Positions 19,401-64,000 of a stretch of DNA of 64,000 bases are shown in pieces; the first letter of the stretch is position 1; each line of letters opens with the position of its first letter. The notes under the pieces were generated by a model that worked only from the letters and a program-made list of their open reading frames with translations, was not told the origin of the DNA and did not search any database. Source of the DNA: an uncultured Clostridia bacterium (GTDB lineage: Bacteria; Bacillota; Clostridia; UMGS1883; UMGS1540); assembly GCA_937966555.1 (NCBI GenBank), contig CALCLY010000027.1:14620-78619 (forward strand). Reading direction: 5' to 3'. The translations under genes were made by a program, and so were the position numbers.

Positions 19401-19490
19401 GGCCGCTCACACTTGTTCGCTTTCAAACGCAAAGTAGGGGCGACCCTATGTGGTCGCCCGTCTTGTGCTCCGCACACCAAACAAACAAGG
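19401..19490. repeat. REP/BIME-like repeat
   Basis: gctcacacttgttcgctttcaaacgcaaa, then REP core 19434-19460 (plus), then the start of the ccgcacaccaaac module. Confidence 0.85.
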
Positions 19491-19498
19491 AGGTAAAC

Positions 19499-19705
19499 AT
19501 GAAAAACAAATCAAAAAAAAGGCTGCGCGTTTTTACGGCGCAGCTAATAGTCTCCCTGCTTTTGCTGGGAGCTTTATCGCTTATGAAAATATATATCCCG
19601 TCCGGCGCGGCTCAGCTTGCCGATGCCGTAAAATACAACGCAAACCCGGAGTATATTTCCGAAAACATAAAAAACTTTATTTTAAAATATACTCCGCAGA
19701 GGTAG
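19499..19705 (+). CDS. small membrane protein, unknown function (68 aa)
   Basis: ATG 19499 with AAGGAGG 7 nt upstream. MKNKSKKRLRVFTAQLIVSLLLLGALSLMKIY contains one transmembrane helix. The longer 19448 ORF begins inside a REP core. Confidence 0.5.
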   Translation: MKNKSKKRLRVFTAQLIVSLLLLGALSLMKIYIPSGAAQLADAVKYNANPEYISENIKNFILKYTPQR

Positions 19706-45910: not shown

Positions 45911-46036
45911 ATGAATTTTGACATAAATCTTTTTCTTTATACACTTCCCGTTATGGGGAAAGGCATGGCAGGCATTTTTATTGTGACCGCCGCGATTATA
46001 CTGTGCATGAAACTTATGACGGCGGCGGATAAGTAG
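45911..46036 (+). CDS. small OadG-like membrane subunit (41 aa)
   Basis: MNFDINLFLYTLPVMGKGMAGIFIVTAAIILCMKLMTAADK contains one transmembrane helix and the GMxxIF pattern of gamma subunits. Below the ORF-track size cutoff. Its TAG stop lies inside REP core 46033-46059. Confidence 0.5.
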   Translation: MNFDINLFLYTLPVMGKGMAGIFIVTAAIILCMKLMTAADK

Positions 46037-46059
46037 GGGCGACCCTATGTGGTCGCCCG
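46033..46059 (+). repeat. REP core immediately upstream of the RAYT gene
   Basis: GTAGGGGCGACCctatgtGGTCGCCCG. Confidence 0.95.
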
Positions 46060-46077: not shown

Positions 46078-46530
46078 ATGAACAAAATGCCAGAAAGAAA
46101 GCAAACCAGGTTGAAGGATTATGATTATTCGCAAAACGGATATTATTTCATAACAATATGTACCCATAACAGACAAAATTTATTCGGTGAAATCGTAGGG
46201 GCGACCCTATGTGGTCGCCCGAATAATCCTGATAAAATGATTGAAAAATGGTTATTGGAATTGGAAAACAAGTTTGATGGTGTCAAAATATGCGAATATA
46301 TTATAATGCCGAATCATTTGCATTTTATAATATCGAAAACGGGCGACCACGCAGGGTCGCCCCTACGGGATATTGTGGGTTGGTTTAAAACAATGACAAC
46401 AAATGAATATATAGAAAATGTAAAAAAAATATGTTTCCGCCGTTTGATAAAAAAATATGGCAACGCAATTATTACGAACATATTATTCGCGATGAAAGTG
46501 ATTATATTGAAACGAAGGAATATATATTAA
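46078..46530 (+). CDS. REP-associated tyrosine transposase (RAYT; IS200/IS605-type Y1 HUH family), zero-frame ORF that ends before the catalytic Tyr motif
   Basis: KQTRLKDYDYSQNGYYFITICT N-terminus, HUH motif MPNHLHFII and WFKTMTTNEY helix. REP cores lie in frame at 46195-46221 (VGATLCGRP) and 46340-46366 (TGDHAGSPLR). After the A8 run (46422-46429) the zero frame reads unrelated sequence. Confidence 0.8.
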   Translation: MNKMPERKQTRLKDYDYSQNGYYFITICTHNRQNLFGEIVGATLCGRPNNPDKMIEKWLLELENKFDGVKICEYIIMPNHLHFIISKTGDHAGSPLRDIVGWFKTMTTNEYIENVKKICFRRLIKKYGNAIITNILFAMKVIILKRRNIY

Positions 46531-46547
46531 ATAATCCTTTAAAATGA
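46428..46547 (+). other. -1 frame continuation of the RAYT gene encoding the catalytic-Tyr module
   Basis: The -1 frame reads NMFPPFDKKIWQRNYYEHIIRDESDYIETKEYILNNPLK then stop at 46545-46547, which is the conserved C-terminus of this family. It joins the zero frame at the A_AAA_AAA heptamer 46422-46428. This is a frameshifted pseudogene, a homopolymer sequencing error or recoding. Confidence 0.7.
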
Positions 46548-46552
46548 GAAAA

Positions 46553-46689
46553 GTAAGGGCGACCCTATGCGGCCGCCCCATTTTGCGTTCCGGAGTTTTT
46601 TAACATCCCGAATGATTTGTTTTACTTAAAAATTTTTTTTAGATATTTTCTTGCGTTCCGGAGTAGGGGCGACCCTATGTGGTCGCCCG
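46553..46689. repeat. REP cores and accessory modules downstream of the RAYT gene
   Basis: Degenerate REP 46553-46579, the gcgttccggagttttttaacatccc module at 46583-46612 with a partial copy at 46647-46663, and REP core 46663-46689 (plus). Confidence 0.9.
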
Positions 46690-46718
46690 AATAATCCACT
46701 ATGTTGTTGATTTCAATA

Positions 46719-48113
46719 TTATAAGTTTTGTCCTTCTTCTAATCTTTCGATTTCTTTTTCCGCGGCTTCAATAGATTTCAAAACCGCTTCTTTTGCCGGT
46801 GCGCCGTAAACCTTTCTCTGGCTTACGCACGTTTCCATGCTTATCGCGTCATAGATGTCCTCATCAAAAACATCCGAGAAGCTTTTGAATTCCTCAAGAG
46901 TAAGGTCATCAAGAGCCTTGTCGCGGCTTATCGCATAAAATACCAGCTTGCCTATAACCGCATGCGCGTCCCGAAACGGCATTCCGTGTTTAACAAGATA
47001 ATCCGCAGCGTCCGTGGCGTTTGTGAAGCCGCCTTTTGCGCCTTTGTACATGTTTTCGGCGTTTATTTTCATTGTTTCAACCATTTTGCGGAACACAGGC
47101 ACGCACAAAAGCACCGTGTCAACCGCGTCAAACACCTGTTCCTTGTCTTCCTGCATATCTTTGTTGTATGCAAGCGGAATACCCTTCATCATTGTGAGAA
47201 GACCCATAAGGCTGCCGTATACTCTGCCGGTTTTTCCGCGGATAAGTTCGGCAACGTCGGGGTTTTTCTTCTGCGGCATTATGCTGCTTCCGGTGGAATA
47301 CGCATCGTCCATCTCAACAAATGAAAATTCGTTGCTGCTCCAGAGAATAAGTTCCTCGCAGAAGCGGCTCAAATGCATCATAAGAACCGACATGTCAAAC
47401 ACCGCTTCAAGCGCAAAATCCCTGTCGCTCACACCGTCCAATGAATTGTCGCTTATCTTTGAAAAGCCGAGCTCGCGGCAGACATATTCTCTGTCAAGAG
47501 GGTATGTTGTGCCGGCAAGCGCACCGCTGCCCAGAGGCATAACGGATGTGCGTGCCGCGCAGCCGCGCAGCCTGTCCGCATCGCGCAGAAGCATTTCAAC
47601 ATATGCCATGAAATGGTGCGCAAGTGTTATCGGCTGCGCCTTCTGCAAATGCGTGTAACCGGGCATGATGGTTTCTGTGTTTTCTTTCGCAAGAGTTATA
47701 AGCGATTTTATGAGCTTTATTGTCTCTTTTGAAATTTCGTGCAGAGCGGAAAGCATGTACATGCGCAGGTCAAGCGCCACCTGGTCGTTTCTGCTTCTGC
47801 CCGTGTGAAGTCTTTTGCCGGCTTCGCCTATCCTGTCCGTCAGGATTTTTTCAATATTCATGTGAATGTCTTCGGCGTCTATTAAAAACTCAACCTTGCC
47901 GGCTTCAATATCGGCAAGAATTTCGCGCAGCGTTTTTACAATAAGTTCGGAGTCCTCCGCCGGGATAATTCCCTGCTTGCCGAGCATTTTTGCATGCGCT
48001 ATGCTGCCTTCAATGTCTTCCCTGTACATTCTTTTGTCAAAGCGGATGGACGAGTTGAAATCGTCCACCGCCTTGTCTGTGCTTTTTTGGAATCTTCCTC
48101 CCCAAAGCTTCAT
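46719..48113 (-). CDS. argH: argininosuccinate lyase
   Basis: MKLWGGRF..., [12 protein letters not shown] and [12 protein letters not shown] signature motifs. 464 aa. Confidence 0.95.
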
Positions 48114-60885: not shown

Positions 60886-61443
60886 ATGCAGGGGTTATCT
60901 TATGTTTTGAGCGCGCTCGGATTGATTTCCATGATCTGCGCCTCAATGATTAAAGGCACAAAATTCAGCATCGTTCTGTTTTTGGTTTTCTGCGGAAACA
61001 TGCTTGTCGCTACGAGTTATCTTATAGGCGGCGCGGGAATAAACGGTGCGGCTGCCTGCTATTTCGGCGGAATACAGACGCTTATAAACTATTTCTACAG
61101 CTCGAGGAACATACCGCTGCCGCGGTGGCTGATTGCTTTTTACGCGGGATTTACGATTGTTCTTAACATTTTTGTTGCCGGCGGCATTTCACTGCTCGGT
61201 CTGCTTGTTATAGTGGCGTCTTTGATATTTATCGTTTGCGTGTGCCAGAAAAACGGCACGGCATACCGCTTTTGGACGCTGATTAACATGCTGCTCTGGT
61301 GCATTTACGATATTCTGTCGGGCTCATACAGCGTGCTTGTGGCACATGTGCCGCAGCTTATATTTGTAATAGCCGGCATTCTGATTTACGACAGACAGGC
61401 GTATGCTGAAAAGTTTTCACGCCTCAGCAAAAAAACATCTTAA
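60886..61443 (+). CDS. polytopic membrane protein (possibly YgjV-like)
   Basis: Start trimmed to MQGLSYVL (AAAGGAG upstream). About five transmembrane helices. The family assignment is weak. Confidence 0.55.
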   Translation: MQGLSYVLSALGLISMICASMIKGTKFSIVLFLVFCGNMLVATSYLIGGAGINGAAACYFGGIQTLINYFYSSRNIPLPRWLIAFYAGFTIVLNIFVAGGISLLGLLVIVASLIFIVCVCQKNGTAYRFWTLINMLLWCIYDILSGSYSVLVAHVPQLIFVIAGILIYDRQAYAEKFSRLSKKTS

Positions 61444-61473
61444 AAATAAATTATTTTAAGAAGGAGACAAGCA

Positions 61474-62109
61474 ATGAAAAAGTTTTTAGCGGTTTTGATT
61501 TGTGCGTTTATGGTTTGTACATTAATAACGGCATGCGGTGACAAAACGGAGAAAACTCCCGAAAACACTGCGGCGCCGGAGGCTTCGGCCGATATAACTC
61601 AGAAAGAGGAGAATAAGATAATGGTTGAGATTACTATGAAAGACGGCGGCAAAATGCAGCTTGAGCTTTATCCCGATGTTGCGCCCGCCACGGTTGAAAA
61701 CTTTGTAAAACTTGTAAACGACGGGTTTTATGACGGACTCACATTCCACAGAATTATAAAAGGCTTTATGATTCAGGGCGGCGACCCGGAGGGCACCGGC
61801 ATGGGCGGATCCAAAGACACGATAAAAGGCGAATTTAAGCAAAACGGTGTTCAGAATGATTTGAAGCACACGCGCGGCGTAATTTCCATGGCGCGTTCGC
61901 AGAATCCGAACAGCGCAAGCTCGCAGTTCTTTATAATGCATGACGACGCACCCTATCTTGACGGACAGTATGCGGCTTTCGGCAAAATGGTTTCGGGCTT
62001 TGAAGAGCTTGACAAACTTGCGGAAACGCCCGTACAGGACGGAAACGGCACAGTTGCAAAAGGCGATCAGCCGCAGATTGAAACAATAAAGATTATCGAT
62101 AATAATTAA
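61474..62109 (+). CDS. cyclophilin-type peptidyl-prolyl isomerase lipoprotein
   Basis: Lipobox LITAC, then FHRIIKGFMIQGGDPEGTGMGG and SMARS...NSASSQFFI. Confidence 0.9.
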   Translation: MKKFLAVLICAFMVCTLITACGDKTEKTPENTAAPEASADITQKEENKIMVEITMKDGGKMQLELYPDVAPATVENFVKLVNDGFYDGLTFHRIIKGFMIQGGDPEGTGMGGSKDTIKGEFKQNGVQNDLKHTRGVISMARSQNPNSASSQFFIMHDDAPYLDGQYAAFGKMVSGFEELDKLAETPVQDGNGTVAKGDQPQIETIKIIDNN

Positions 62110-62150
62110 ATTTATTATATATTAATTATTAATTAATGGAGGTTTTTAAA

Positions 62151-63167
62151 ATGTCAGTAAAAGTTGCTATTAACGGTTTCGGACGTATCGGCCGTCTGGC
62201 TTTCCGTCAGATGTTCGGTGCAGAGGGCTATGAGGTTGTTGCTATCAACGATTTAACAAGCCCCAAGATGCTTGCTCATCTTTTGAAATACGATTCGTCT
62301 CAGGGCAAATACGCTCTTGCGGACAAAGTTGAAGCAGGCGAAGATTCCATCACGGTTGACGGTAAAGAAATCAAAATCTACGCTTTCCCGGATGCAAACA
62401 ACTGCCCCTGGGGAGCTCTTGATGTAGACGTTGTTTTGGAGTGCTCCGGCTTCTATACATCAAAAGAAAAAGCACAGGCTCATATCAATGCAGGTGCTAA
62501 GAAGGTTGTTATTTCAGCTCCGGCAGGAAGTGACCTTCCCACAATCGTTTACAATGTAAACCACAACACACTTAAAGCAGATGATAAAATTATATCCGCT
62601 GCTTCCTGCACAACAAACTGCCTCGCTCCCATGGCTGATACTCTTAACAAGTACGCTGCTATTCAGAGCGGTATCATGTGCACAATCCACGCTTACACAG
62701 GCGATCAGATGACACTTGACGGTCCTCAGAGAAAGGGTGACCTCCGTCGTTCGCGTGCAGCTGCGGTAAACATCGTTCCTAACTCCACAGGTGCTGCAAA
62801 GGCAATCGGTCTTGTTATCCCCGAGCTCAACGGTAAGCTCATCGGCGCTGCTCAGCGTGTTCCCACACCCACAGGTTCAACAACAATTCTTACAGCTGTT
62901 GTTAAGGGCAAAGACGTTACAAAAGAGGGCATCAACGCTGCTATGAAAGCTGCTGCAAACGAGTCCTTCGGATACAACACAGACGAAATCGTATCGAGCG
63001 ATATCGTTGGCATGAGATTCGGTTCACTCTTTGACGCAACACAGACAATGGTTGCTCCCATAGGTGACGATCTTTATGAGGTTCAGGTTGTTTCCTGGTA
63101 TGATAACGAAAATTCGTACACAAGCCAGATGGTTAGAACAATCAAATACTTCGCTGAACTTGCATAA
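62151..63167 (+). CDS. gap: type I glyceraldehyde-3-phosphate dehydrogenase
   Basis: [27 protein letters not shown] (catalytic Cys) and WYDNE. Start at ATG 62151 after GGAGG. Confidence 0.95.
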
Positions 63168-63183
63168 TTTCAGTTGATTTTTT

Positions 63184-63216
63184 AAAGGCTGCCGCAATTT
63201 AGCGGCAGCTTTTTTT
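63184..63216 (+). terminator. intrinsic terminator after gap
   Basis: GCTGCCGC aattta GCGGCAGC followed by T7. Confidence 0.8.
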
Positions 63217-63373
63217 ATGCGAAGTTTTAAAAATTTTGCCGTTTGTATGAAGATTTGTTTGCAGGGTGTGCGGAAAAAAATTTGTTGTCCGCGCATTTTT
63301 ATTCATATTTTTTGTATAAAATTATTTTTTTCTGTCAATACTTCATGTACAAAGAAAAAATGAGGGTGATGGA

Positions 63374-64000
63374 ATGAAAAAGAAAGTTTTGATTTTTTTC
63401 GTATCGGCAATATTTGTTTTGGTTTTCACGGCGGCATCGTATTCGTGCGGATTCGGTGAGGATCTGGAAAACAGCGTCATAAGGCTGCATGTGCTTGCAA
63501 ACAGCGACAGCGCGGAAGATCAGGCACTGAAACTTCGCGTGCGCGACAGGATTTTAAAAGACGGCAGAGAGCTTTTTAAAAATGCAAAATCAGAGGAAGA
63601 GGCACGCAGAATTTTAAGCGAAAACAGAGATTTTCTTGAAAATTCCGCCCGTGACGAAATTTTCAGTGCAGGGTATGACTACCCGGTTGCGGTGAATATG
63701 GGAAAATACGATTTCCCGATGAAGGTTTATGAAAATTACGCGTTTCCTTCCGGGGAATATGAGGCTGTGAGAGTTGAGATAGGGAAAGCCGAAGGGCAGA
63801 ACTGGTGGTGCGTCATGTTTCCGCCGCTGTGCTTTGTTGACGGCACAGTGGACGAAGAAAAAGCGGAGGAAACGCTGCGCTCCGCGCTTACGGCAGATGA
63901 GTTTGATGTGATTTCCGCATCCGGCGGAGTTGATTTGAGATTTAAAGTTGTGGATGTTTTTCAGTCGTCATTTAAGGCGGTTAAGACAGCATTGGCAAAG
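63374..64000 (+). CDS. spoIIR: stage II sporulation protein R (3' end beyond the window)
   Basis: MKKKVLIFFVSAIF..., VIRLHVLANSDSAEDQALKLRVRDRIL, GEYEAVRVEIG.AEGQNWWCVMFPPLCF. The ORF is open to the window end, so it is missing from the ORF track. Confidence 0.88.
   Translation, partial: MKKKVLIFFVSAIFVLVFTAASYSCGFGEDLENSVIRLHVLANSDSAEDQALKLRVRDRILKDGRELFKNAKSEEEARRILSENRDFLENSARDEIFSAGYDYPVAVNMGKYDFPMKVYENYAFPSGEYEAVRVEIGKAEGQNWWCVMFPPLCFVDGTVDEEKAEETLRSALTADEFDVISASGGVDLRFKVVDVFQSSFKAVKTALAK

Follow-up and report, generated by a model that had tools for sequence, protein, structure and literature searches.

The RAYT gene and its split reading frame

The window analysed here is a stretch of 64,000 nucleotides (nt) from an uncultured Clostridia bacterium (contig CALCLY010000027.1 of assembly GCA_937966555.1), and our subject is a gene in it for a REP-associated tyrosine transposase (RAYT), whose reading frame is broken at a run of eight adenines (A8). 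The parts of the gene, named for a repetitive extragenic palindrome (REP), are as follows.

46078..46530, plus strand: zero-frame open reading frame (ORF) of the RAYT gene, 150 amino acids (aa), protein P0015; N-terminal core of the RAYT in residues 1-117, then 33 residues that are out of frame
46315..46323, plus strand: zero-frame codons of the HUH motif, H80-L81-H82 (motif definition, PMC3479197); H80 and H82 are invariant in the alignment
46422..46429, plus strand: A8 tract, the point of the frame break, which includes the heptamer A_AAA_AAA at 46422-46428
46428..46547, plus strand: -1-frame continuation, NMFPPFDKKIWQRNYYEHIIRDESDYIETKEYILNNPLK and then the stop codon; C-terminal helix with the catalytic tyrosine
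46521..46523, plus strand: codon of the catalytic tyrosine, Y149 of the fusion, read in the -1 frame only; aligned to Y115 of 4ER8 and invariant

The frame break at the A8 tract, which lies three quarters into the gene, is present in the sequence as first described. Positions 46420-46433 read GTAAAAAAAATATG, and 46420 is the start of a codon in the ORF, giving GTA AAA AAA ATA with a heptamer of the X_XXY_YYZ form, A_AAA_AAA, in the correct zero-frame register; a first-pass annotation of this DNA had reported the same letters and the same register. Past K117 the zero frame encodes 33 unrelated residues (ICFRRL...RRNIY; the first-pass annotation counted 34) and ends at a TAA stop (46528-46530), which had been placed correctly. 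When base 46428 is read twice, translation continues as N-M-F-P-P-F-D-K-K-I-W-Q-R-N-Y-Y-E-H..NNPLK to a TGA stop (46545-46547), and our retranslation agrees with the proposed 156-aa fusion, the junction peptide of which is NVKKNMFPPFDK. Over 41 residues, the -1 segment has 100% identity with intact relatives (tblastn, 1e-22). The heptamer and the break do not coincide independently, however, because the break itself is an indel in this run of A. We also considered that the 38-aa ORF at 46431..46547 might be translated on its own and rejected this, as its ATG lacks a preceding ribosome-binding site and its exact peptide is absent from the protein collection.

Assignment to the RAYT family

The fusion matches the Pfam family Y1_Tnp (PF01797) with 35.1 bits over positions 6-120 of the 121-position profile, above the cut-off of 23, while the zero-frame product alone reaches 21.8 bits over positions 5-87 and stays under it; reading into the -1 frame thus extends the match. 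Among the NCBIfam models, REP_Tyr_transpos (NF047646) gives the best match at 75.6 bits, which is below its curated cut-off of 80, and transpos_IS200 is far lower at 27.7 bits. In an alignment to Escherichia coli TnpAREP (4ER8), residues 124-156 of the fusion fall on residues 90-122 of that enzyme, where Y115 acts as the catalytic tyrosine and N119 contributes to metal binding (PMC3479197); the counterparts are Y149 and N153, both of which are invariant in 17 relatives and both of which lie downstream of the frame break. The claim that the tyrosine motif sits in the -1 frame therefore stands as to its position downstream of the shift, but the tyrosine is Y149 in EYILNNP and not a residue of NYYEH.

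By these alignments, the gene is a short RAYT, that is, a small HUH/Y1 single-strand DNA nuclease predicted to recognise the REP hairpins tagged with GTAG, which are dispersed over this genome. It resembles TnpAREP in the HUH motif, in the Tyr and Asn on the C-terminal helix and in the GTAG-tagged REP hairpin as the substrate. The alignment to TnpAREP is, however, confined to the C-terminal 33 residues (E = 0.005), and the window RAYT ends at K156, with no counterpart of H123 of TnpAREP and without the C-terminal extension that carries E161.

Alleles of the tract within the species

We compared the gene with 41 related loci of the same species, which together with the window give 42 gene copies; these loci come from human-gut metagenomes, and their argH genes are about 99.7-99.8% identical to that of the window. 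The first-pass annotation had proposed this comparison of related strains for A8 versus A9, and both lengths were indeed found, together with an interrupted form. In terms of the tract, the RAYT copy next to argH (copy A) occurs in three states: namely, GTAAAAAATAATATG, in which six A, one T and two A (A6-T-A2) encode VKNNMF and which is the commonest; GTAAAAAAAAATATG, an in-frame A9 that encodes VKKNMF (protein P0135); and the frameshifted A8 of the window. Among the 42 gene copies, GTAAAAAATAAT was counted 21 times, GTGAAAAATAAT 8 times (in a second RAYT paralogue, copy B), A9 9 times and A8 4 times, with A6-T-A2 in about 80% of the argH-side copies. When contigs are counted by the protein that they encode, the intact P0121, P0122 and P0124 are found on 40, 24 and 15 contigs and the A9 protein P0135 on 10 contigs from several studies, whereas the A8 proteins P0015, P0022 and P0032 account for 5-6, 2 and 1 (an NCBI/ENA contig), about 9 in total; a look-up of contigs encoding P0032 returned no record. 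No A7 or A10 allele was found by exact look-ups of the protein collection.

Among the homologues, copies with a broken frame are rare. Of the best 120 homologues, 117 are uninterrupted proteins of 153-229 aa, and the only ones that are cut are P0015, P0032 and P0022, the former two being one and the same product, that of the window, called from either of two starts. The frame is unbroken in L005-L007, which are relatives at 81-87% identity; a scan of genome contigs found no species representative with the frameshift, only intact relatives at 87% identity or less, and a scan of metagenome contigs with the pattern GAAAATGTAAAAAAN{2,3}TATGTTTCC gave two matches, both unrelated and due to chance. 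The position after K116 is a variable loop, which reads VKNN, VKQN, VREK, VKDG and others among the relatives. Since copy B and the outgroups at 81-87% identity have AAT AAT or other codons at this site, A6-T-A2 is the ancestral form and the uninterrupted A run a derived one.

The A8 allele itself is found on more than one background. In one lineage, that of the window, the OAD-beta gene lies upstream, the spacer to argH measures 171 nt and argH has a single private single-nucleotide polymorphism (SNP); the other, represented by L001/L002, has a TAC-to-TAT change and a 333-nt spacer. The argH haplotype of L002, an A8 locus, is exactly that of L054, an A9 locus, with two rare SNPs included, and the window and L003 are on a different haplotype from these two. 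A8 and A9 are thus one slippage step apart, as L002 and L054 share their argH haplotype. Since the argH haplotype, the spacer structure and the upstream context each come in two forms among the A8 loci, A8 appears to have arisen more than once or to have moved by recombination; recombination or inversion between the paralogues could also explain this distribution.

A second, intact RAYT gene

In the course of the comparison, a contig in ENA (k119_132427) was found to carry the frameshifted RAYT with flanks 100% identical to those of the window and, about 18 kb away and inverted, an intact RAYT of 156 aa (P0123) that matches Y1_Tnp. The corresponding end of the window is as follows.

61038..64000, no strand assigned: end of the window, 100% identical to L025 3509-6471; the intact RAYT P0123 (minus strand in the orientation of the window) begins about 38 nt past 64000

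Frameshifted copy A and intact copy B are thus found on one contig. The two paralogues are 92.5% identical in DNA and share one REP, and the inverted pair with a distance of about 18 kb is seen on scaffold_441 as well as on k119_132427. Two RAYT copies are more than the one per genome that is typical of the family, a number that is family-typical rather than strictly defining.

Origin and meaning of the frameshift

We consider it likely that the A8 allele is a real, lineage-restricted frameshift in a mutable A tract of one of two RAYT paralogues, in a copy that is redundant. A one-base indel in the A-rich tract splits the enzyme, leaving the HUH metal-binding core (residues 1-117) in the zero frame and the C-terminal helix in the -1 frame; standard decoding therefore gives a 150-aa protein without the catalytic tyrosine, and this truncated product is presumably inactive. 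As to the route, the ancestral AAAAAATAA (Lys-Asn-Asn) would have become A9 by a T-to-A change in some strains, and A8 would have followed from A9 by one step of replication slippage; alternatively, A8 could have come from A6-T-A2 by deletion of the T, and we regard either route as possible. The intact paralogue about 18 kb away could supply the activity and thereby would complement the truncated copy, because of which the broken copy is probably redundant and its loss probably tolerated. Among the readings that the first-pass annotation had offered, a genuine frameshift is accordingly the best supported, with the qualification that only one paralogue of the pair is affected and that the change is a polymorphism of recent date in this species. 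Judged from the alleles, the frameshift appears to be an ordinary, heritable mutation at the level of strains, at an unstable tract, and not an evolved recoding signal.

Several points weigh against this interpretation. The window stops short of copy B, and its own genome presumably holds the intact paralogue by virtue of the identical contig. The 119-nt -1 segment has no further disabling mutation in any A8 allele, and the only substitution there among these alleles, the TAC-to-TAT change of L001/L002, is silent in the -1 frame and alters the amino acid in the zero frame. An intact -1 segment is what a maintained function would predict, although less than one change is expected at a divergence of about 0.3%, and a test of decay against selection on this segment is therefore powerless. 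Also, slippage at A8 is measurable in known tracts, and “inactive” may therefore be too strong a word for this copy: slippage of RNA polymerase or of the ribosome on A8 would yield a small amount of the 156-aa protein, whose junction, VKKNMF, would be that of the natural A9 allele. The broken gene is thus probably leaky, and the little full-length protein made by such adventitious slippage would probably be a by-product, not an evolved signal. Finally, the alleles were read from assembled contigs, and the length of the tract may vary within a sample.

The same reliance on assembled sequence, instead of reads, is one point for the view that an A was lost by sequencing or assembly error from a true A9. 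A simple miscount of A9 as A8 was at first ruled out, for the commonest intact allele was A6-T-A2 and A8 then resembled a deletion of the T; the step from A9 to A8 came back into consideration once the in-frame A9 allele turned up in closely related strains, one of which shares its argH haplotype with an A8 contig. Sister genomes with A9 do exist, as the suspicion of a homopolymer error had foreseen, but A8 recurs in its contigs across several assemblies and sources (ENA, JGI/IMG and NCBI) and with private markers. Neither the exact A9 version of the window protein nor an A8 version on the plain P0135 background is present among about 15 billion proteins; the window-type haplotype is, in other words, never seen with A9. 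Furthermore, Megahit assemblies from the same ERZ27 accession range recovered A6-T-A2, A9 and A8 in different samples, and the other homopolymers of at least 7 nt in the window are inside long intact ORFs. Because of the private markers, the missing A9 counterpart, the mixed Megahit alleles and the intact ORFs around other homopolymers, a random homopolymer error is unlikely. The third proposal of the first-pass annotation, programmed recoding, is slightly less likely still, and we give it little weight. It would hold that A_AAA_AAA or the A8 run is selected for and that the gene, like IS1, IS3 and IS1447, makes an HUH-only regulator by standard decoding and a fixed share of the complete transposase either by -1 ribosomal frameshifting or by +1 transcriptional slippage. 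The register of the heptamer, the -1 product with the VKKNMF junction of the natural allele P0135 and the synonymous nature of the lone downstream substitution would all suit this proposal, and so would the slippage of about 16% on A runs of 7-9 in a Clostridium insertion sequence (IS) and the productive A8 of some IS elements. A conserved shift site or two-frame layout was, however, not found, as 117 of the 120 best homologues have a single frame and the neighbours carry diverse residues at the variable loop; A8 is a minority allele in one species, on a derived A run, and an intact paralogue stands alongside. No stimulatory structure was detected downstream (in the 106 nt that begin at the tract, z = -0.39, and 64 of 200 shuffled sequences were equally good folders) and no adjacent hairpin upstream (80 nt ending at the tract, z = +0.23), nor was a Shine-Dalgarno-like element visible, the 40 nt upstream being AT-rich with no GGAGG-like element. 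With no such fold, no such element and no conserved site or layout, programmed recoding, which would have been new for RAYTs, is not supported.

The A9/A8 difference could also be a phase-variable (contingency) switch, which toggles copy A by replication slippage and is itself under selection, since REP/REPIN activity has to be weighed against what it costs the host, as proposed for the RAYTs of Neisseria. In Neisseria, non-functional RAYT copies arise mostly from frameshifts in short homopolymer tracts, which recur and sometimes revert, and the authors (Bertels et al.) suggest that replication slippage might turn the gene on and off adaptively (bioRxiv 10.1101/2021.07.10.451892). In line with this precedent, in-frame A9 and out-of-frame A8 occur within one species, and one of the two argH haplotypes with A8 is identical to that of an A9 strain. 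Nonetheless, most strains and the outgroups carry the stable interrupted tract, by which the species maintains no switch; no haplotype was found in both states, neighbouring lengths are missing from the collection, and the tract, which sits late in the gene, is confined to one paralogue of the pair. An evolved switch is therefore less likely here than in Neisseria, and we think it improbable, if somewhat less so than an error. A related idea, to which we would assign a slightly smaller chance, is that the tract acts as a rheostat of one paralogue, heritably switchable by replication slippage and leaky via RNA-polymerase slippage, with the A8 state giving mainly the HUH-only protein plus a few percent of full enzyme. 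By the same doubtful idea, the HUH-only protein would bind REPs and modulate the intact paralogue; if true, this would be a first case in Firmicutes of a domesticated REP transposase whose dosage is set by a homopolymer.

The preferred reading, a real frameshift in one of two paralogues, fits a case of the Neisseria type, its nearest precedent, in a new host. As in Neisseria, there are homopolymer frameshifts, several copies of which only some are functional, and in-frame and out-of-frame tract lengths among close relatives (here A8 and A9 in one species, with L002 and L054 on a shared argH haplotype); the frameshifts there recur on different backgrounds. The host of the window is, in contrast, a human-gut Clostridia species with a short RAYT of 156 aa, and its tract is a recent derivative (A6-T-A2 to A9 to A8) rather than a standing feature, with no reversion seen. 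Since paralogue B is intact, the decay of REP/REPIN sequences is not expected here. RAYT pseudogenes with frameshift or nonsense mutations are also found in Pseudomonas fluorescens and Stenotrophomonas, where they have been taken as recent pseudogenisation (Nunvar et al. 2013, PMC3686654); those genomes have two to four RAYTs, but these are different RAYTs with different REP classes, unlike the 92.5%-identical pair with one REP described here.

The likeness to slippage in IS elements is confined to the tract. In the IS1447/IS3-family and IS630-type elements with slippage and in the IS1/IS3 elements with -1 frameshifting, the frame junction is marked by an A_AAA_AAN heptamer or by 7-9 consecutive A (for slippage of the IS1447, IS630 and dnaX type, about 7-9 nt or more of A or T), where one additional A in the mRNA or a -1 slip of the ribosome would fuse two frames; in IS1447 of Clostridium thermocellum slippage amounts to about 16% in each direction on A9, and A7 suffices. 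Those elements share the run and the two-ORF layout throughout the family, often with a stem-loop. Neither is true of the window RAYT: a run of this class is present at its frame junction, but as a derived feature that differs between strains of a single species. Some IS elements make productive use of A8, and in apoB, a eukaryotic gene, a one-base deletion in an A8 run is partly made good by mRNA slippage, which rescues full-length product to about 10% (cited in Baranov et al. 2005, PMC1088944). AAAAAAA is avoided in all frames of E. coli genes (PMC4066793). The tract variant AAGAAGAA would be expected to remove both kinds of slippage. These results take away the tempting claim that RAYTs use programmed frameshifting and add a Firmicutes example to the loss of RAYTs at homopolymers in Neisseria, which bears on the balance between REP/REPIN sequences and their transposase. 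A slippery heptamer at a frame break can, indeed, be a mere scar of an indel in a mutable A tract.

Besides the tract, the window has another A8 run at 19513-19520, in the early codons of a possible small membrane-protein ORF (within 19448..19705, with an internal MKNKSKKRL start) and 55 nt downstream of a REP; no sign of a frame break was seen at this second run.

REP sequences at and within the gene

The window contains 19 copies of the REP, as compared with 0 expected, and those at the RAYT gene are as follows.

46033..46059, plus strand: upstream flanking REP, GTAG and then the hairpin GGGCGACC-ctatgt-GGTCGCCC
46195..46220, plus strand: REP inside the coding sequence, with 0 mismatches to the consensus; encodes the conserved VGATLCGRP
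46341..46366, minus strand: second REP inside the coding sequence, inverted; encodes the conserved GDHAGSPLR
46553..46578, plus strand: degenerate REP variant directly past the stop codon, GTAA and then GGGCGACCCTATGCGGCCGCCC
46663..46688, plus strand: downstream flanking REP, GTAG with a perfect hairpin, before the convergent argH gene (46719..48113, minus strand)

The flanking REPs are in direct, not inverted, orientation, while the two internal REPs are inverted relative to each other and bracket the HUH codons. We found no description of REPs inside RAYT coding sequences in the literature, in a search that was not exhaustive. Distant RAYT relatives, which belong to other phyla, also hold internal copies of their own genome's REP (L008, L011, L012 and L017; alignment A2), and in two Chloroflexota metagenome-assembled genomes the internal REP GTAGGGGCGAAGCATCCGCC is found a further 7-8 times outside the gene within 6 kb. 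The TGDHxG repeats after the HUH motif vary in number in some relatives.

Some decayed RAYT relatives are broken at the positions of the internal REPs. In L014 (3001-3296) residues 48-89 are missing, which is exactly the segment between the two internal REPs, HUH included; L013 (2431-3198) is interrupted at residue 89 by about 320 inserted nt, and the frame of L015 (3001-3443) changes between residues 34 and 60.

We also noticed that the orientation of the 19 REPs (window 1556-48214) is biased by strand: the five copies below 11.1 kb are all on the minus strand, and those above 15.9 kb are all on the plus strand, with the inverted copy within RAYT as the one exception. Nothing obvious in the profile of GC skew corresponds to this change of strand between 11.1 and 15.9 kb. 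The upstream flanking REP furthermore provides, with its GTAG, the TAG stop (46033-46036) of a 41-aa hydrophobic ORF (45911..46036) that follows the OAD-beta gene; REPs with GTAG that supply stop codons are a general arrangement noted by Di Nocera et al. 2013.

The segment between the inverted RAYT genes

The segment of about 17-18 kb between the inverted RAYT genes occurs in both orientations (L025, L046/L064 (scaffold_441) and L062-L065). One arrangement has OADb>RAYT<argH and SpoIIR>/<RAYT<LactB, and the other has OADb>RAYT<SpoIIR and argH>/<RAYT<LactB. The RAYT genes are mosaics, in which the 5' block tracks the upstream flank and the 3' block tracks the downstream flank. The GC skew of 46.7-64 kb is +0.04 and that of both flanks is -0.09; as the skew of the segment is opposite to both flanks, this suggests that the window is in the derived orientation. 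The inverted RAYT pair, the invertible segment and the internal REPs may outrank the frameshift in interest.

The spacer between the stop codons of RAYT and argH (46548-46718 in the window) also varies across strains, with lengths of 103, 171, 333, 337 and about 355 nt. Its indels are bounded by short direct repeats (TTGCGTTCCGGAGT; GAATGATTT) (L001, L004, L040 and L043-L061), and the terminal REP in the spacer is present in some strains and absent in others.

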